A DNA stretch of 64,000 bases from an uncultured Gemmatimonadales bacterium. Its GTDB lineage: Bacteria; Gemmatimonadota; Gemmatimonadetes; Longimicrobiales; RSA9. The stretch lies in assembly GCA_963798845.1 (NCBI GenBank), contig CAWCUS010000001.1:332999-396998 (forward strand). Reading direction: 5' to 3'. The notes beneath the pieces were generated by a model, which was not told the origin of the DNA, made no database searches, and saw only the letters and a program-made list of their open reading frames with translations. Position 1 is the first letter of the stretch. Each line of letters begins with the position of its first letter. Below, piece after piece: positions 20,668 to 58,094 of the stretch. Position numbers and translations under genes: made by a program.

Positions 20668-21258
20668 TCAATCCCTTTGCAGAAGCGGTGCTGCGAGCAG
20701 AATCTTCCGAGCGAGGTCGATCATTGGAGTGTTCTTGTCCTGACTGGTCTTCTGCAGGAAGCGGTAGGCGTCCTGCTCGGACATCTTGCGAGTCTCCATG
20801 AGGATCCCCTTCGCGCGCTCGAGCACCTTCCGCTCTTCCAGCTTGCTGGCCAGCGTGTCCCGCTCCTGGCGCGCCCGCATCCACTCGTCGAACCTGGCCT
20901 TCGCCACGGATATGGCCGGGGCGAGGTCGTCCGGATCGACGGGCTTGACCAGGTAGTGGAAGACGGGGGAGCGCGTGGCGTCGTCGACCGTCCGCGCATC
21001 ACTGTACGCCGACAGGATGATGATGGGGATCGGGCGTTCCTCGTGGATCTTGAGCGCAGCCTCCGGGCCGGTCATCACCGGCATGCGGATGTCCAGGATC
21101 GCCATATCCGGCCGCTTCTCCCGGGCGAGCTCCACGGCCTCCTGCCCGTTCGCGGCGGTGGCGACGATCTCGTGGCCGAGCGCTTCCAGCTGACTGGTGA
21201 GCGCCAGGTTGTGCAACGCCTCATCGTCGGCAATGAGAAACCGAAAGGACTGCGCCAT
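20668..21258 (-). CDS. REC-ANTAR response regulator (PdtaR/EutV/NasT-like RNA-binding antiterminator)
   Basis: LIADDE, PDMAILDIRMP, YLVKP; ANTAR LEERKVLERAKGILM....SEQDAYRFLQKTSQDKNTPMIDLARKI. Confidence 0.93.
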   Translation of the reverse strand: MAQSFRFLIADDEALHNLALTSQLEALGHEIVATAANGQEAVELAREKRPDMAILDIRMPVMTGPEAALKIHEERPIPIIILSAYSDARTVDDATRSPVFHYLVKPVDPDDLAPAISVAKARFDEWMRARQERDTLASKLEERKVLERAKGILMETRKMSEQDAYRFLQKTSQDKNTPMIDLARKILLAAPLLQRD

Positions 21259-21311
21259 GGAACACCACTCCGTGAAAGTGAACGCCCTGCGCCGGAACGC
21301 GTCCGTGGAAC

Positions 21312-21345
21312 AAAAAAAACGGCCCGGCTCCAGACGGGAGCGGGC
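21312..21345 (-). terminator. Intrinsic terminator in the 5' leader of the ANTAR regulator gene
   Basis: Minus strand GCCCG-CTCC-cgtct-GGAG-c-CGGGC-cg-TTTTTTTT, ending about 54 nt before the ATG at 21258; no gene upstream on the same strand. Confidence 0.72.
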
Positions 21346-21565
21346 AGGCAACACCCATTCGATCGGCCGTATCCGACAGCGCTGAAGTTGCCGGGGGCGC
21401 GATCCGCGCGCAAGAGGCTGAGGCATCGCGCCACCGGCGGGGGGCGGCCCCTGCGGCACCGGCGTCCTGACGGAGCCAGGTCCAACCCCGTACCAACTAT
21501 CATCGATGCGCAATATATTTCCGCGGTGCGGGGGGCGCGGTGTGTCGGACCGGGCGACCCCGGGC

Positions 21566-51505: not shown

Positions 51506-52642
51506 TTATCGGCGCCGCGAGGCCTCCAGCGCCGCCAGCACCAGGGCGTCGGGCAGCGCGTGCGTCCACTCTCCCGCACCGCCGCGCGCCGGCTCACCGG
51601 GGCGCGCCACGAGCGCGTAACGGATGGCGCCGGCCCTCGCCTTCTTGTCCGATCTCGCCGCCTTCAGCACCTTTTTCGGTTCCATCCGATCGGGCACGGC
51701 CGTGGGGAGCCCGAACGCGGCCAGCGCCTCGGCGATGCGGGCGCTCGTGCCCGCGGCCGTCACACCCTCACGCTCTCCGGCCGCCGCCTCCACCACCATC
51801 CCGATGGCCACGGCGTCCCCGTGCGAGAGCCCGTAGCCGGAGACCCGCTCCAGCGCGTGCCCCACGGTGTGGCCGAAATTCAGCACCGCGCGCTCCCCCG
51901 CTTCCAGCACGTCCCGGGCGACCACGCCCGTCTTGATCCGGACCGAGCCCGCTACCAGCGCGGCCAGCGCCCGATCGTCTCGCCGGAAGATGGCATCCGC
52001 GTCGGCCACCAGGCGATCGAGGTAGTCGACGTCGGCGATGGCGCCGTGCTTGACGGCCTCGGCGAGGCCGGCGCGCAGCTCGCTGTCCGGCAGCGTGCTC
52101 AGGAAGCGCGGGTCCACCACCACCAGGCGCGGCTGGTGGAACGCGCCGACCAGGTTCTTTCCGGCGCTCAGGTCGAGCCCCGTCTTCCCGCCGATGGAGG
52201 CGTCCACCATGGCCAGGAGCGTGGTCGGCACCTGGACGAAGGCGACTCCCCGGCCGAACGTCGCGGCGGCGAAGCCCGCCACGTCGCCGGTCACGCCCCC
52301 GCCCAGCGCGACAATGCAACCATCGCGGCCGAGGCCGAGGTCGCCCAGCGCCTCCACCAGCGCCGCCCATCGCCCAGGCGTCTTGTGCGCCTCGCCCGCA
52401 CGGAGCCGCACCGCCTCGACGGCGTGCCCGGCCTCCCGAAGACGCGACAGGACGCGCTCGCCATGGAGGTCGGCGACGATGTCGTCGCAGACCAGGACGT
52501 ACTGCTGCGCCGGGACGTGGCGGCGCACCACCTCGCCCAGCCGGTCGGCGACGCCCGCGCCGATGATGATCTCGCACCGCTCCGGCGGGCGGGGCAGCAC
52601 CAGCGACACCAGCGCTTCGCCGCCGGCGGTCTCCTCGATCAC
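51506..52642 (-). CDS. aroB: 3-dehydroquinate synthase
   Basis: ALGGGVTGDVAGFAAAT..RG, VPTTLLAMVDASIGGKTG, KNLVGAFHQP, LNFGHT.GHALE, HGDAVAIGM, DKK; GTG overlaps the ybdK stop. Confidence 0.95.
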   Translation of the reverse strand: MIEETAGGEALVSLVLPRPPERCEIIIGAGVADRLGEVVRRHVPAQQYVLVCDDIVADLHGERVLSRLREAGHAVEAVRLRAGEAHKTPGRWAALVEALGDLGLGRDGCIVALGGGVTGDVAGFAAATFGRGVAFVQVPTTLLAMVDASIGGKTGLDLSAGKNLVGAFHQPRLVVVDPRFLSTLPDSELRAGLAEAVKHGAIADVDYLDRLVADADAIFRRDDRALAALVAGSVRIKTGVVARDVLEAGERAVLNFGHTVGHALERVSGYGLSHGDAVAIGMVVEAAAGEREGVTAAGTSARIAEALAAFGLPTAVPDRMEPKKVLKAARSDKKARAGAIRYALVARPGEPARGGAGEWTHALPDALVLAALEASRRR

Positions 52643-53781
52643 TCCGCCCGCTGCTTCCGCCGACGGTCGAAGCCCGTCCCCAGCAGCGTCTCCCGAACCA
52701 GCCACGCCATCACCTCCTCGAAGGACCCCGTCTCCGCGTGCACGCGACGCAGACGATCCGCGCCGTTGCCCCGCTCCAGCATCGTCTCCACCCGCTCCAG
52801 CACCCCCAGATCCCCCACCGCCGACGCCAGCTGCGCCGCGCCGTCGAGGATCCGCCGTATCGCCGGTCGCACGCCCGTCTTCCCGCTCGGGGTCTCCGGG
52901 TCCGTGAGCGCGCCGTCCAGCCCGAACCTCGCCGCGTGCCACTCGTTCTCGGTCAGGACCTCGCGCCAGACGTCCGGGCTCAGCCCCCCGGAGCCGGGCG
53001 CCTCGAGCTCCCCTTCCGCCACGCCCATGACCACGAGCCTCGCCAGCGCGGCGATCGTGGCGGCGTCTTCGAGCCGCGGGCAGACGTCCATCGCCCGGAA
53101 CTCCAGCGTCGGATAGGAGAAGTGGGGACGCAGGCTCCAGTACACGTTGCCCCGGTCCTGGATCGCTTCGCTCCGCAGCAGAAGGCTGATGAACCTGCGG
53201 TACTCCTCGTCACTTTCGAAGCGCGGCGGCACGCCGGTGTAGGGGTACTGCCGCCACAGGATCGAACGGTACGATGCGAACCCGGTGTCCTCCGCGTCCA
53301 GGAACGGTGAGCTGGCGGAGAGCGCCACCAGGTGCGGGATGAAGCCGCGAACCTGCTCCATCAGCATCGTCCGGTCGATGCGGTCCGGCACGCCCACGTG
53401 CACGTGCATGCCGAAGATGTTGACCTCCCGGGCGATCCGGTCATGGCGCTCGACGATGGCCCGGTAGCGCTCGTCCGGGTGGATCCCCGCGCCTTCCCAC
53501 GCGCTGAACGGGTGCAGCCCCGCCGCCGCGATGTCCACCCCCTCCGCCGCGGCCGTCGTGGCCGCCTGGAAGCGCTGGCGACGGAGCTCTCCCTCCACCT
53601 CCTCCACCGTCCCGCACACCGGCGTGCCGATCTCCACGGTGGTCTCGTGCAGCTCACCGCGCAGCTCGTTCGCCCAGTCCGTGGCCAGCACGTCGGACGC
53701 GCGGCTGCGCAGCGCACCCGTGTCGGGGTCCACCAGCTGGTACTCCTCCTCCACGCCCATCGTGTATTCGTGGTTGGCCAT
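52639..53781 (-). CDS. YbdK-family carboxylate-amine ligase (GCS2, glutamate-cysteine ligase-like)
   Basis: MGVEEEYQLVD, EIGTPVC, GLHPF, FGMHVHVG, ALSASSPF, TGFASYR, YWSLRP..SYPTLEFRAMD. Confidence 0.92.
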   Translation of the reverse strand: MANHEYTMGVEEEYQLVDPDTGALRSRASDVLATDWANELRGELHETTVEIGTPVCGTVEEVEGELRRQRFQAATTAAAEGVDIAAAGLHPFSAWEGAGIHPDERYRAIVERHDRIAREVNIFGMHVHVGVPDRIDRTMLMEQVRGFIPHLVALSASSPFLDAEDTGFASYRSILWRQYPYTGVPPRFESDEEYRRFISLLLRSEAIQDRGNVYWSLRPHFSYPTLEFRAMDVCPRLEDAATIAALARLVVMGVAEGELEAPGSGGLSPDVWREVLTENEWHAARFGLDGALTDPETPSGKTGVRPAIRRILDGAAQLASAVGDLGVLERVETMLERGNGADRLRRVHAETGSFEEVMAWLVRETLLGTGFDRRRKQRAE

Positions 53782-53910
53782 GCTTCTCGGGGCTCACCGT
53801 GTCGGGTGCCGCAGGGTACGGCTCTGAGGGTTTCGGTGGCAAATGCGGGGCCCGGAGAAACAGCGAGGCGCGCGCTCCACACACGAGCCTCTTCCATTCC
53901 GAAATCGCTT

Positions 53911-54012
53911 CATTATATTCTCTTCCCGACGGAGCACAGGTGCTCAAACGGGGCGCTCCGGCCATATGACGGAACGGCTAACAACCGCGTCTCTTTGCAG
54001 GGGCGCTTTTTT
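53911..54012 (+). promoter_or_regulatory. Structured leader with intrinsic terminator and alternative antiterminator pairing (attenuator or riboswitch candidate)
   Basis: -10-like TATATT at 53914-53919; terminator GCGTCTCT-ttgc-AGGGGCGC-TTTTTT at 53987-54012; second copy of GGGGCGC at 53950-53956. Confidence 0.6.
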
Positions 54013-54032
54013 CATGGGGTACGAACGAACCG

Positions 54033-55067
54033 ATGCCGCTGAATATCGGGCTCGCGTACAATCAGAAGCCTGACCCGGAGGACGAGCCTCCCGGTACCAG
54101 GCGTCCCCTCGACGACCGATTCGCCGAGTGGGACGACCCCTCGACAATCGCGGCCGTCGAGGCTGCGCTCGCCGAAGCCGGCGATGTGATCCGGCTCGAA
54201 GCCGATGAGGACTTCCCCGCCCGCCTCCGGGCGACCCGGCCCGACATCGTCTTCAACATCGCGGAGGGGCTGAACGGCCCCAACCGGGAAGCGCACGTCC
54301 CGGCCATCTGCGAGTTCTTCGGCATTCCCTACACCGGCAGCGACCCCCTCGCCCTGGCGCTCAGCCTGGACAAGCGGCGGGCCAAGGACGTGTTCCGTGC
54401 CGCCGGGGTCCCGACGCCCGCGGGCGTGTCGGTGTCGCGGCCGGAAGAGCGGCAGCTGGCGCTGCACGTGCCGATCCCGGCCATGGTGAAGCCGCTCTTC
54501 GAGGGCTCCAGCAAGGGCATCCCCGAGAGCGCGCTGTGCGAGAGTCCGGACGACGTGCTGGCACGCGTGGACGCCGTCCTGGAGGAGTACGGCCAGCCGG
54601 CGCTCGTGGAGACCTTCCTCCCCGGCCGGGAGTTCACGTGCGCCGTGCTGGGCAACGGTGACGGCGCGCGGGCGCTCCCGCTGGTGGAGATCCGGTTCGA
54701 CGCGCTGCCGGCGGGCGCGAAGCCGATTTACGGCTACGAGGCGAAGTGGGTCTGGGACACGCCCGACCGGCCGCTCTCCATTTTCAGCTGCCCCGCGGCG
54801 GTGGATGGGGCGCTGGGGTCGCTGATCGAGGGCACTGCGGTCGCCGCGTTCACCGCGCTCGGCTGCCGCGACTGGGCCCGGGTCGACCTCCGCCTCGACG
54901 ACGCCGGGCTCCCCCACGTGCTGGAGATCAATCCGCTCCCCGGCGTCCTGCCGGATCCGGAGCAGAATTCCTGCTACCCCAAGGCGGCACGGGCGGCCGG
55001 AATGGACTACGGCCAGATGATCCGGGCCGTGCTCGATGCTGGGCTGAACAGGTACGGCCTGCGATGA
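54033..55067 (+). CDS. D-alanine-D-alanine ligase-like ATP-grasp protein 1
   Basis: VFNIAEG, GIPYTGS...L.LDK, VKPLFEGSSKGI, VETFLPGREF, YGYEAKW, ARVDLR, LEINPLPG. Confidence 0.88.
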   Translation: MPLNIGLAYNQKPDPEDEPPGTRRPLDDRFAEWDDPSTIAAVEAALAEAGDVIRLEADEDFPARLRATRPDIVFNIAEGLNGPNREAHVPAICEFFGIPYTGSDPLALALSLDKRRAKDVFRAAGVPTPAGVSVSRPEERQLALHVPIPAMVKPLFEGSSKGIPESALCESPDDVLARVDAVLEEYGQPALVETFLPGREFTCAVLGNGDGARALPLVEIRFDALPAGAKPIYGYEAKWVWDTPDRPLSIFSCPAAVDGALGSLIEGTAVAAFTALGCRDWARVDLRLDDAGLPHVLEINPLPGVLPDPEQNSCYPKAARAAGMDYGQMIRAVLDAGLNRYGLR

Positions 55068-56101
55068 GGATCGCCGTCGCCTACGACCGCGCCGCCGACG
55101 CCCGCGAGGGCGACGCCCCGCACTCCGGCCGTGACGACGCGGCCGTCCGGGACCGCCCCGCTTCCTCCCCCGCCCCCGCGCTCCCGGAGCGATCCGCCGC
55201 CGCGCCCGATGTGGCCGGGGTGCGCGAGGCGGTGGACGCCGTGGTCGAGAGCCTGGGGCGCCTCGGCCACGCCGCGTTCCCCGTCGCAGTGCACGCGCCG
55301 CTGGAGCGGTTCCTCACCCGATTGAGAGGCGTGGAGCTGGTCTTCAACCTCGCCGAGGGGCTCGACGGACGGGCGGAGGACGAGCCGCGCCTCGCCGCCC
55401 TCATGGAGCTCTCCGGGCACCCCGTCACCGGCGCGTCCTCGGACACGCTGGCGCTGTGCCGGCGCAAGGACCGGGTCAACACCCTGGCCGCCAGCCGCGG
55501 GCTGGCCGTTCCGCCCTGGGCGGTGGCCCGGCCAGGCCGGCCCGGATGCCCGCTCCCCGGCTGGACGATCTTCCCGGCCATCGTCAAGCCGGTGGACGAG
55601 GACGGGTCCGTCGGCATCCACGGGGACTCCGTGGTGGAGGACGCGCTCGAGCTCACCGCCTCGCTCGAGCGCGCGGACGGCGAGGTCCTCGTCCAGGCCT
55701 TCGTCGCCGGTCGCGAGTTCAACGTCGGCTTCGTCGGTGAAGAGGCCCTGCCGCTGGCGGAGATCGTGTTCGCCGGAACGCAGCGGGTGGTGAGCTACGC
55801 TGCCAAGTGGGCACCGGGCTCGGCCGACGACCTGTCGACCCTCCCCGTCTGCCCCGCCCGCGTCACCGCCACGTTCCACGACGACGCCGTGGCGCTCGCC
55901 CGTGAGGCCTGGGGCGCCGTGGGCGGACACGGGTACGGCCGCGTGGACCTCCGCACGAACGCAGATGGTCGGCTGAACCTGCTGGACGTCAACCCGAACC
56001 CCGACCTGGCTCCCTCCGCCGGGCTGGCGCGCATGGCGCGCGTGGCCGGCTGGGGCTTCGACGATCTGGTGGCACGGATCGTGGAGGAAGCGGTCGCATG
56101 A
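55064..56101 (+). CDS. D-alanine-D-alanine ligase-like ATP-grasp protein 2
   Basis: VFNLAEG, PVTGAS, IVKPVDEDGSVGI, FVAGREFNV, SYAAKW, YGRVDLR, LDVNPNPDL; ATGA overlap with ligase 1. Confidence 0.85.
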   Translation: MRIAVAYDRAADAREGDAPHSGRDDAAVRDRPASSPAPALPERSAAAPDVAGVREAVDAVVESLGRLGHAAFPVAVHAPLERFLTRLRGVELVFNLAEGLDGRAEDEPRLAALMELSGHPVTGASSDTLALCRRKDRVNTLAASRGLAVPPWAVARPGRPGCPLPGWTIFPAIVKPVDEDGSVGIHGDSVVEDALELTASLERADGEVLVQAFVAGREFNVGFVGEEALPLAEIVFAGTQRVVSYAAKWAPGSADDLSTLPVCPARVTATFHDDAVALAREAWGAVGGHGYGRVDLRTNADGRLNLLDVNPNPDLAPSAGLARMARVAGWGFDDLVARIVEEAVA

Positions 56102-56610
56102 CTATCAAAACCCTTCAAAACGAGATGGCGACCGTGTTGCGGGCGCTGGAGCCGGGAGACCGGCCGGCGCTCGAGCGGCTGGTCCGATCCGTGGAGCTGT
56201 TCAGCGCCGCGGAGAAGGACGTGGCGATGGAAGTGCTGGACGGATACATGGAGCACCCCGGGAAGGACTACCACGCGCTGGGCGCCTTCACCCACAGTGG
56301 CGACCTCCTGGGCTACGCGTGCTACGGCCCCACGCCGTGCACCGAGGGCACCTGGGACCTCTACTGGATCGCCGTGTCCGGGGAGTCCCGGGGCCGAGGC
56401 ATCGGAACCCTGCTGATGGAGGAGATTGAACGAAGGCTCGTCGAACAACACGCTCGACTCGTGCTCATCGAGACCGCCTCGCGCGCCGACTACGCCCCTA
56501 CCCGGGCGTTCTACGAGCGGCGCGACTACCAGGTGGTCGCACGGGTCCCGGATTTCTATGCGCCGGGCGACGATCGCGTGATCTTCGCCCGCACCTTCCC
56601 CAGCGTTTGA
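56098..56610 (+). CDS. GNAT N-acetyltransferase
   Basis: GYACYGPTP...GTWDLYWIAV...RGRGIG, IETAS...Y.PTRAFY; ATGA overlap with ligase 2. Confidence 0.9.
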   Translation: MTIKTLQNEMATVLRALEPGDRPALERLVRSVELFSAAEKDVAMEVLDGYMEHPGKDYHALGAFTHSGDLLGYACYGPTPCTEGTWDLYWIAVSGESRGRGIGTLLMEEIERRLVEQHARLVLIETASRADYAPTRAFYERRDYQVVARVPDFYAPGDDRVIFARTFPSV

Positions 56611-56624
56611 CCGACGAGAGAGAA

Positions 56625-58094
56625 ATGTCCAACTGGCAAGAGACCCTGAGGCAGAGCGTCACGACGGTAGACGATCTGATCGACCGCTTCGGTGCCGAGA
56701 ACGTGGACCGTGAAGCGGTCGAGAAGGCCATCGAGAAGTTCAACCTTCGCATCACCCCGGCCGCGCTTGCGCAGATCAAGGCGCCGGGCGACTGGGCATG
56801 GAACCAGTACGTACCCACGGGCGCGGAGAACGAGGTCGTGGACGGGATCGTCGACTCGCTGGACGAAGACGCGGACTCGCCCGTCCCGAACATCACGCAC
56901 CGCTACCCGGACCGCGTGCTGTTCCTGGTCTCGCCGGTGTGCTCCACCTACTGCCGGTTCTGCACGCGCCGACGGAAGGTGGGCGACCCGGAGAAGATCC
57001 CGCTGAACCAGTTCGACGCCGCGTTCGCATACCTGCGCGAGCATACGGAAGTGCGCGACGTGGTGCTCTCCGGCGGCGATCCGTTCATGCTGAGCGACCG
57101 GCGAATCGAGTACTTCCTCTCGACACTGCGCGCCATCCCGCACATCGAGATCATCCGAATCCACTCCCGGGTGCCCAACCACCTCCCCGAACGTGTCACG
57201 CCCGAGCTGGCGGACATGATCAGGAAGTACCACCCGGTGTACGTGAACGTGCACTTCAACCACCCGGACGAGCTCACGCCGGAGTCCATGAAGGCGCTCG
57301 GCCTGCTGGCAGACGCCGGCATCCCGCTCGGTTCCCAGAGCGTGCTGCTCAAGGGCGTGAACGACGACCCGGCGATCATGAAGCGGCTGATGCAGCGGCT
57401 CCTCGTCGCCCGCGTGAAGCCGTACTACATCTACCAGGCGGACGTGGTGGCCGGCGGCGAGCACTTCCGCACGTCCGTGCAGAAGGGGATCGAGATCATC
57501 CAGGCGATCCGCGGCTGGACTTCCGGGCTCGGCGTCCCGCACTACGTCATTGACGCCCCCGGCGGCGGCGGCAAGATCCCGATCCTGCCCGAGTACGTGC
57601 AGGCGGTCACCGACAGCGAGATCGTGCTCCGCAACTACGCGGGCGAGGAGTTCCGCTACCCGCTCCCGCAGGAGCCTGCGCGCGTCGGCAACGGGTGCGA
57701 CATCCCGAGCATCCCGAGCCGCATCGCCGCCCGCACCGCCCGCTCCGGCGGCGTCGCCGGCGCCGGCAAGAACGAGAACGGGCGGGCGCGGCACAAGAAG
57801 GCGGCGAGCGCCCAGGCCAACGCCAACCGCAGCGGCGGGGCCGCAGGCCGGTCCAGCCGCCCGTCCAATGGGAACGGCCGCAAAGCCGACCGCGCGATCG
57901 GCACGTCCGGGCCGAGCAACGGCGGCGGAAATGGCGGACCGAGGATATCCTCTGACGGCGGCGCGGGCTCGAACGGCAACCGCCAGCCCAGGACGAACGG
58001 CAACGGGCACCGGAACGGCCGCGGGAACGGCCACGCCGACCCGGCTCAGATCACCATCGAGACGCTGGGCGGCATCGTGCCGATGGACGTGTAG
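56625..58094 (+). CDS. KamA-family radical SAM lysine 2,3-aminomutase with low-complexity C-terminal tail
   Basis: ITHRYPDRVL, CSTYCRFCTRRR, VLSGGDP, HFNHP.E, QSVLLKGVND, PYYIYQAD, GWTSG, YVIDAPGGGGKIP (PLP lysine). Confidence 0.92.
   Translation: MSNWQETLRQSVTTVDDLIDRFGAENVDREAVEKAIEKFNLRITPAALAQIKAPGDWAWNQYVPTGAENEVVDGIVDSLDEDADSPVPNITHRYPDRVLFLVSPVCSTYCRFCTRRRKVGDPEKIPLNQFDAAFAYLREHTEVRDVVLSGGDPFMLSDRRIEYFLSTLRAIPHIEIIRIHSRVPNHLPERVTPELADMIRKYHPVYVNVHFNHPDELTPESMKALGLLADAGIPLGSQSVLLKGVNDDPAIMKRLMQRLLVARVKPYYIYQADVVAGGEHFRTSVQKGIEIIQAIRGWTSGLGVPHYVIDAPGGGGKIPILPEYVQAVTDSEIVLRNYAGEEFRYPLPQEPARVGNGCDIPSIPSRIAARTARSGGVAGAGKNENGRARHKKAASAQANANRSGGAAGRSSRPSNGNGRKADRAIGTSGPSNGGGNGGPRISSDGGAGSNGNRQPRTNGNGHRNGRGNGHADPAQITIETLGGIVPMDV

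Follow-up and report, generated by a model that had tools for sequence, protein, structure and literature searches.

A conserved terminator-like element and likely transcription attenuator in the leader of a Ddl-like/GNAT/KamA operon in Gemmatimonadota

We analyzed the 251-nt gap between a minus-strand carboxylate-amine ligase gene and a plus-strand operon that encodes two Ddl-like ligases, a GNAT and a KamA-family aminomutase. With somewhat better than even confidence, we read this stretch as the 5' leader of the operon, working as a transcription attenuator. It carries a putative stop signal between a promoter-like block and the first gene. Dozens of related bacteria have retained this signal, so it probably holds down expression of this beta-lysine operon. 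A first-pass annotation of the sequence had proposed a regulatory switch. A dedicated 5' leader with a conserved intrinsic-terminator-like element does make a regulatory (attenuator) role likely, but the three-part layout of competing helices that was proposed with it is unsupported. The genes at the locus, in the coordinates of the window (the whole 64,000-nt stretch that was analyzed), are as follows.

52639-53781, minus strand: YbdK/GCS2-type carboxylate-amine ligase gene, divergent neighbor of the operon
54033-55067, plus strand: Ddl-like ATP-grasp ligase, operon gene 1 (Pfam, NCBIfam)
55064-56101, plus strand: second Ddl-like ligase, operon gene 2 (Pfam, NCBIfam)
56098-56610, plus strand: GNAT, operon gene 3 (Pfam, NCBIfam)
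56607-58094, plus strand: KamA-family radical-SAM aminomutase, operon gene 4 (Pfam, NCBIfam)
54033-58094, plus strand: the whole controlled operon, four genes

The operon genes are joined by start/stop overlaps (ATGA, ATGA and TTGA). The genome is 4.26 Mb in size with 70.5% G+C, and the nearest relatives of the first ligase among named records are Gemmatimonadota or Longimicrobiales MAGs. The upstream neighbor of the operon is a divergent GCS2 gene here, and GCS2, ThyX, DHQ synthase or others elsewhere. Because this neighbor is divergent in the window and variable in other genomes, we assign the terminator element to the operon's own leader. On the GCS2 side of the gap, the block GTGGCAAATGCGGGGCC (53836-53852) is common to the window and the loci G001, L007, L009 and L010. 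Its minus-strand reading (..CATTTGCCAC.., with GTACCCT about 18 nt on) resembles a promoter of the divergent GCS2 gene.

The following elements were located in and around the leader, all on the plus strand.

53888-53919, plus strand: promoter-like block CCTCTTCCATTCCG, with a -35-like CTTCCA (53891-96), a 17-nt spacer and a -10-like TATATT (53914-19), from the sequence
53925-53952, plus strand: the originally annotated P1 hairpin, CCCG..GAGC-ACAGGT-GCTC..CGGG, in the RNAfold minimum-energy structure
53930-53960, plus strand: comparative P1, CGGAGC (53930-35) with GCTCCG (53955-60), from RNAalifold and pair counts
53960-53969, plus strand: conserved single-stranded box GGCCATATGA / GGCCAUAUGA, containing AUG 53966, from invariant alignment columns
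53966-54073, plus strand: open frame from AUG 53966, 35 codons and a stop, crossing the terminator and entering the ligase gene out of frame, from ORF reading
53975-53986, plus strand: conserved linker CGGCTAACAACC / CGGCUAACAACC, directly 5' of the terminator, from the alignment of close leaders
53987-54012, plus strand: intrinsic-terminator-like element, an 8-bp stem (53987-94/53999-54006), loop TTGC and U-tract (54007-12), from sequence, scan and covariance model
54016-54020, plus strand: Shine-Dalgarno-like (SD-like) GGGGT, 12 nt 5' of the ATG, from the 16S 3' end

The terminator had been noted from the sequence before, and it is indeed present, ending 20 nt before the ATG (54033), and strongly conserved in relatives. 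It reads GCGTCTCT-TTGC-AGGGGCGC at 53987-54006, followed by T6 at 54007-12. Its 8-bp stem, including 5 G-C pairs and two G-U pairs, closes a 4-nt loop with a modest folding energy of -10.0 to -10.3 kcal/mol. The U-tract is separated by 3 nt from the SD-like GGGGT. The 16S rRNA of the same genome has the 3' end ..GGATCACCTCCTTTCT / ..GGAUCACCUCCUUUCU, which identifies the purine block past the U-run as a ribosome-binding site. This SD behind the terminator is kept in all three terminator-bearing clades, with a mean duplex energy of -6.9 kcal/mol in clade A (the window type) and -10.1 kcal/mol in clades B and F.

Taken by itself, the window sequence stays within chance. The leader fold has a z-score of -1.57, with 13 of 200 shuffles folding equally well, and a terminator scan found 1 site in 2 kb where 0.8 are expected. 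We place the terminator above chance because it is rare in the genome and because relatives keep the hairpin and U-run with compensatory changes. T6 runs number only 67 on both strands of the 4.26-Mb genome, in which U-runs are strongly avoided; T5 followed by CATRGG occurs once in the genome, and no second copy of the leader was found there. About a dozen of the 85 genomic sites with a hairpin and T5 fall 8-120 nt past the end of a predicted ORF, which suggests that the organism uses canonical terminators. Six further sites in the genome, all outside the window (C1:32856, C1:175337, C5:137935, C6:218265, C6:474449 and C3:33451) have a GC hairpin and T5-7 lying 3-66 nt upstream of predicted ORF starts. 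These may be leader or intercistronic terminators, with gene calls that are crude (GC3 filter).

We profiled the upstream regions of orthologous ligases, which were detected in 35 of the 73 genomes searched from the same family. Genome contigs and metagenome contigs contributed a further 80 loci each, and 190 loci had a ligase match. Dropping 21 loci with short upstream DNA or an unaligned N-terminus, along with 12 duplicates, left 157 unique loci. One row in the counts (L017) comes from a genome flagged as unpublished; the identical stretch occurs in the public L045, and its removal changes nothing. A terminator was called when a hairpin with a dG of -6 kcal/mol or lower ended at most 2 nt from a run of at least 4 T and at most 40 nt from the start codon. 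By this definition, a hairpin with a U-run (T4-T7) lies 13-40 nt before the ligase start in 75 of the 157 loci, 4-5 of which (L064, L065, L082, L104, L166) look like promoter-region artefacts. The counts by ligase identity to the window are as follows.

Identity of at least 75%: terminator in 8 of 8 loci
Identity of 62-75%: terminator in 26 of 30 loci
Identity of 60-62%: terminator in 3 of 7 loci
Identity of 57-60%: terminator in 13 of 26 loci
Identity of 54-57%: terminator in 22 of 46 loci
Identity below 54%: terminator in 3 of 40 loci

The terminators fall into three sequence types with one order throughout: hairpin, U-run, 1-3 nt and a strong SD.

Clade A (window type): GCGYCUCC..GGAGRCGC, U5-6, CAUAGGGGU
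Clade B: GGCUCGUC..GACGGCC, U6, GUAGAGG
Clade F: GGACCGC..GCGGCC, U6, GUAGGAGGU

The stems differ by clade, CCCCUC/GAGGGG being another form, and the hairpin-U-run-SD order is constant. Conservation is tightest in the lower stem, the U-run and the SD directly behind it. A covariance model (R1) built on 16 clade-A sequences matched only the terminator position, with 32 loci at E<0.01 among the 38 clade-A loci searched; outside clade A, the best match among 178 unique loci had an E-value of 0.3. Across 32 clade-A leaders, 93.5% of stem cells are paired, double changes occur in 6 of 9 pairs and none of 500 shuffles scores as high, in an alignment that was fitted to the model structure and so favors pairing. 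An independent MAFFT/RNAalifold alignment of 8 sequences gave double changes in 3 of 8 terminator pairs. Comparison of homologous leaders, which had been suggested as a check with the original annotation, thus found the terminator conserved with compensatory changes. The window and a same-genus relative share 81% identity in the leader (89 of 110 positions), 67% at the third codon positions of the ligase and 70% in the upstream intergenic DNA. In L088, L096 and L100, the conserved ligase N-terminus is preceded by CTGCCAATAAGAATCGGA, with no in-frame ATG, GTG or TTG near the SD, and a CTG start codon seems likely.

Orthologous loci also carry other control devices. A sigma-54-type -24/-12 motif (YGGC-N7-TTGC/A) was found 45-171 nt before the start in 26 of 157 loci, compared with 1 of 157 in the reverse-strand control. 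A leader terminator occurs in 0 of these 26 loci, so the terminator and the sigma-54 promoter look like alternative devices. The presence of a sigma-54-type promoter in loci without the terminator suggests that the operon is conditionally expressed. One example of the motif is TGGCATCGCTCTTGC, and the loci include L059, L072, L081, L090, L098, L105 and 20 more. The two top entries of the list, L121 and L032, have the motif farther upstream, where it may be due to chance.

In nine loci that we term clade E (L062:2880-3012, L085, L056, L053, L049, L060, L146, L050 and L058), the operon has a leader of about 130 nt without a terminator. This leader has a closing helix (CGAUG/CGUCG), the hairpins CUCC-NNCA-GGAG and GGAGC-N7-GCUCC, and no Rfam match. 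RNAalifold found almost no covariation in it (1 of 28 pairs), because the sequences are so similar. The clade-E loci have no obvious ATG, GTG or TTG start ahead of the conserved RIGFAFN codons. The window leader and the clade-E leader appeared to have CCAAUAGGAAG and GAACGGCU in common, but we rejected homology between them, as a model of the clade-E leader (R2), searched against 93 sources, matched the nine clade-E loci and not the window. The operon therefore carries three upstream devices within one phylum: a leader terminator, a sigma-54-type promoter and the leader of about 130 nt. Given the changing upstream neighbor, we assign each of these devices to the operon itself.

Transcription of the window leader would most likely start a few bases past TATATT, at about 53926-53930. 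The -10-like box is present at 53914-19, where it had been annotated, and the block CTTCC(A/C)TTCC .. TAnnnT recurs upstream of clade-A leaders by inspection; a consensus sigma-70 scan did not call it. A minus-strand reading of the -10 box (TATAAT) was rejected, since TAnnnT on the plus strand is the better fit across all clade-A loci and the upstream gene varies in orientation. Reiterative transcription of the pyrG type was also rejected, as inspection of clade-A leaders showed no G-run at the predicted start sites. In clades B, C, D and F, and at window positions 21490-21520 on the minus strand, ATTGCGC or ATTGTGCG is followed after about 17 nt by TAnnnT (TATCTT, TACCTT, TATACT). By inspection, this form looks like a general housekeeping promoter of the phylum, and the clade-A operon instead has CTTCC(A/C)TTCC at -35.

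The annotation had read the leader as a self-contained RNA switch. In that proposal, P1 (53925-52) acts as an anti-antiterminator, GGGGCGC (53950-56) pairs with GCGUCUC (53987-93) as an antiterminator that competes with the terminator, and a ligand or protein that acts on P1 tips the balance. All of its segments exist in the window: CCCG/CGGG (53925-28/53949-52) flank GAGC-ACAGGT-GCTC (53932-45), and GGGGCGC is identical to the terminator 3' arm (54000-06). In both the window and G001, 53950-56/53987-93 is moreover the strongest duplex that the 5' arm can form with upstream sequence (-11.9 kcal/mol; z -1.72 and -1.16). The minimum-energy fold also allows 53950-60 to pair with the terminator 3' arm, which makes alternative folds physically feasible. 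However, relatives keep neither P1 nor the alternative pairing. Among eight close relatives, 72.7% of the cells of that P1 are paired, with 1 compensatory cell and 186 of 500 shuffles doing equally well, and the antiterminator has 73.8% paired, no compensatory change and 500 of 500 shuffles equal.

The same comparison favors a different P1, one that uses 53955-60. We aligned the eight closest leaders (the window, G001 (locus L006), L116, L115, L007, L009, L010 and L008), and RNAalifold, with no structure supplied, returned two helices, the terminator and the comparative P1 (53930-35/53955-60). In this P1, 95.3% of cells are paired, with two-sided changes in 4 of 6 pairs; when the terminator is included, 96.3% are paired and 7 of 14 pairs have double changes. 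The earlier hairpin sits in an insert of about 20 nt inside the comparative P1 that is found only in the window and G001. The two helices are incompatible and compete. Downstream of the comparative P1, the box reads GGCCAUAKGA in 7 of the 8 close relatives and GGCCACAAGA in G001; it has two matches in the genome, of which the other lies in a coding-looking stretch, so that it is single-copy as a leader element. The window, G001, L007 and L115 all have the linker in the form CGGCTAAC.ACC, and it too is single-copy in the genome.

Because alignments are weak in gappy regions, we added an alignment-free test, in which, for each of 36 clade-A leaders, the strongest pairing of upstream sequence with the terminator 5' arm was set against 200 dinucleotide shuffles. 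No excess complementarity to the 5' arm was detected (mean z +0.27, with 0 of 36 leaders at p<=0.05), in a test that helices of at most 4 bp would escape; the window's own antiterminator duplex had a p-value of 0.08. Some clade-A leaders have only about 20 nt ahead of the terminator, which also argues against a self-contained switch, and we consider that reading very unlikely. Upstream leader length ranges from 19 to 135 nt in the 36 clade-A leaders with an assigned -10 box. The covariation of the comparative P1 and the kept box belong to the eight close relatives, and nothing like them is seen across the 36 leaders as a set. As a group, upstream leaders folded no better than shuffles (mean z -0.38, with 2 of 32 at p<=0.05), and the stretch from the U-run to the start codon had no excess structure of the kind an SD-sequestering hairpin would give (mean z -0.27, n=73).

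The leader had been described as resembling no known riboswitch class, and the Rfam searches agree. A scan of 53300-54500 gave no leader match at E<=10, its three chance-level matches all lying outside the leader, and 20 orthologous loci gave 0 matches at gathering score.

A fit to an ANTAR-type hairpin had also been proposed. ANTAR targets are defined by two tandem hairpins with hexaloops that have A at position 1 and G at position 4. A phosphorylated REC-ANTAR regulator would bind such a two-hairpin leader RNA and block the terminator. The part of the proposal that stands is that the window has one A1/G4 hexaloop hairpin (ACAGGU), in the originally annotated local hairpin, and an ANTAR protein (about 20668-21257, minus strand), one of two in the genome, the other being on another contig. 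Yet a second hexaloop hairpin, which should overlap the 5' arm of the terminator, is absent from the window, and the eight close relatives do not retain the single one. In 36 clade-A leaders, one A..G.. hexaloop hairpin occurs in 11 and the defining tandem pair in 1. The ANTAR gene lies 33 kb from the operon, beside a response-regulator/HisKA_2 sensor protein and glutamine synthetase; no ANTAR gene was found among the operon neighbors examined, and the absence of an Rfam match at E<=10 also speaks against this mechanism, which we regard as highly improbable. The REC-ANTAR gene (ATG at about 21257, minus strand) has its own leader of about 190 nt (window 21257-21520), behind a TTGCGC/TAnnnT-type promoter-like site. 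It contains a GC hairpin followed by U8 at about 21310-21345, which may be a second leader terminator in the window; the two-hexaloop ANTAR motif was not found in this leader.

Translation could instead be coupled to attenuation, as in pyrBI, pyrE and ampC. A ribosome starting at AUG 53966 would follow RNA polymerase over the terminator and prevent the hairpin, and read-through would reflect translational capacity or the charging level of some tRNA. Mechanisms of this type work by translation or ribosome binding beside the terminator and require no antiterminator helix. In the window, the 35-codon frame that starts at AUG 53966 runs across the terminator. By inspection, the box in 7 of the 8 close relatives has an AUG (AUAUGA; AAGAUGG in G001) or AUAGGA followed by AUG or GUG within 0-8 nt, and the G001 frame ends in UGAUG on the ligase start. 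The frame, its length and its peptide nevertheless differ among relatives, and L007 has no start codon. ATG frames crossing the terminator occur in 18 of 36 leaders, compared with 16.5 expected from dinucleotide shuffles (sd 2.2, P 0.34), and 16 of 36 leaders have no ATG frame of at least 6 codons. No SD-like sequence precedes AUG 53966 (-4.1 kcal/mol, versus -4.0 in shuffles), and clade-A leaders are not enriched in ampC-like SD-like sites upstream of the terminator (mean z +0.27). On inspection, at least one short clade-F leader (L165) lacks any ATG, GTG or TTG ahead of the terminator. We therefore consider translation coupling unlikely. In L016, L019 and L021, a common AAUGAAACG / AAUGGAAAG lies about 7 nt past the -10 box, at the predicted transcription start; in L016 and L021, a frame (MKR...) opens there, crosses the terminator and closes immediately ahead of the ligase start, at the UAG within CAUAUAGG. 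A leaderless leader frame may exist in this subgroup.

The tests for a sensor by complementarity to the 5' arm, structure between SD and start, leader fold, crossing frames and SD-like sites were negative, which speaks for a constitutive element. The terminator would then act as a set point, reducing expression of the operon and yielding a free leader RNA of about 85 nt, or the hairpin and U-run would be a stabilizer or insulator that keeps the strong SD accessible. A hairpin with a U-tail is the usual 3' end of small RNAs, and the tightest conservation, in the lower stem, the U-run and the adjoining SD, is consistent with these roles. On the other hand, a GC hairpin with U5-6 before a gene is costly unless termination is wanted, and U-runs are strongly avoided in this genome. 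The sigma-54-type promoters of orthologous loci without the terminator suggest conditional expression, and the close subgroup keeps an unpaired box upstream. A purely constitutive role thus seems to us a minority prospect, about as doubtful as translation coupling.

In the attenuator reading that we favor, a short 5' module would be made first, consisting of the comparative helix P1, the box GGCCAUAUGA and the linker CGGCUAACAACC. RNA polymerase would next meet the terminator (stem 53987-54006, U6 54007-12), 3 nt ahead of the ribosome-binding site. By default, most transcripts would end at about 54010-54013, so expression of the operon would depend on read-through. We infer that read-through would be set by an occupant between the box and the terminator 5' arm, not by a conserved competing RNA helix. 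This occupant would keep the hairpin open and could be a bound protein, a ligand-stabilized small fold of the P1/box module or a ribosome from AUG 53966. A bound protein or a small ligand-stabilized fold of the P1/box module is a tentative choice for the sensor within this reading, and we hold it with clearly less than even confidence. A little more doubtful still is the bolder proposal that the P1 / GGCCAUAKGA / CGGCUAAC module and the terminator form a lineage-restricted sensor RNA of a new type (a very small riboswitch or a protein-binding leader) that gates an orphan beta-lysine peptide-ligase cassette.

If that proposal is true, one physiological signal would be read by several unrelated mechanisms (the terminator in 75 of 157 loci, sigma-54 in 26 of 157 and the 130-nt structured leader in nine loci), and a comparison of the devices might uncover this signal as well as what the cassette does. 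Four-gene cassettes of this make-up (KamA aminomutase, two Ddl-like ligases and GNAT) are widely distributed, and identifying the inducing signal would lead directly to their function. If the terminator is constitutive, the finding is an ordinary one. The leader offers a clean experimental handle: it is single-copy, and its strong, covarying terminator immediately precedes the ribosome-binding site. Gene regulation in Gemmatimonadota is almost unexplored, and a validated attenuator there would be a useful reference; a literature search at the level of abstracts turned up no account of a leader or riboswitch for this operon or this phylum.

The leader belongs to no Rfam family, is not an ANTAR substrate and is not a demonstrable leader-peptide attenuator. 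It is like the ANTAR-regulated leaders targeted by EutV, NasR and AmiR in having a leader terminator, one A..G.. hexaloop hairpin and ANTAR genes in the genome, but it lacks the hexaloop pair, its single hairpin is unconserved and the regulator gene is unlinked (33 kb). It is like the Escherichia coli pyrBI, pyrE and ampC attenuators in that a frame from upstream crosses the terminator, in the window and most close relatives; unlike them, it conserves neither start nor SD nor peptide, has such frames no more often than shuffles and lacks an evident upstream U-rich pause region. In comparison with terminator-type riboswitch and leader-attenuator platforms, for which we take the lysine riboswitch (Rfam RF00168) as the example, there is no match to an aptamer model and no conserved mutually exclusive helix, and the upstream leader is conserved only in about eight close relatives and shrinks to about 20 nt. 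The overall order is nevertheless that of these platforms: promoter, untranslated leader, GC hairpin with U-tract, SD and first metabolic gene. Like them, it occurs as one copy per genome before one operon, here with a covarying terminator stem. As for the cargo rather than the leader, the operon has a KamA-family aminomutase and a GNAT in common with the AblA/AblB (KamA/YodP) pathway for N-epsilon-acetyl-beta-lysine, and differs from it by two additional Ddl-like ATP-grasp ligases.
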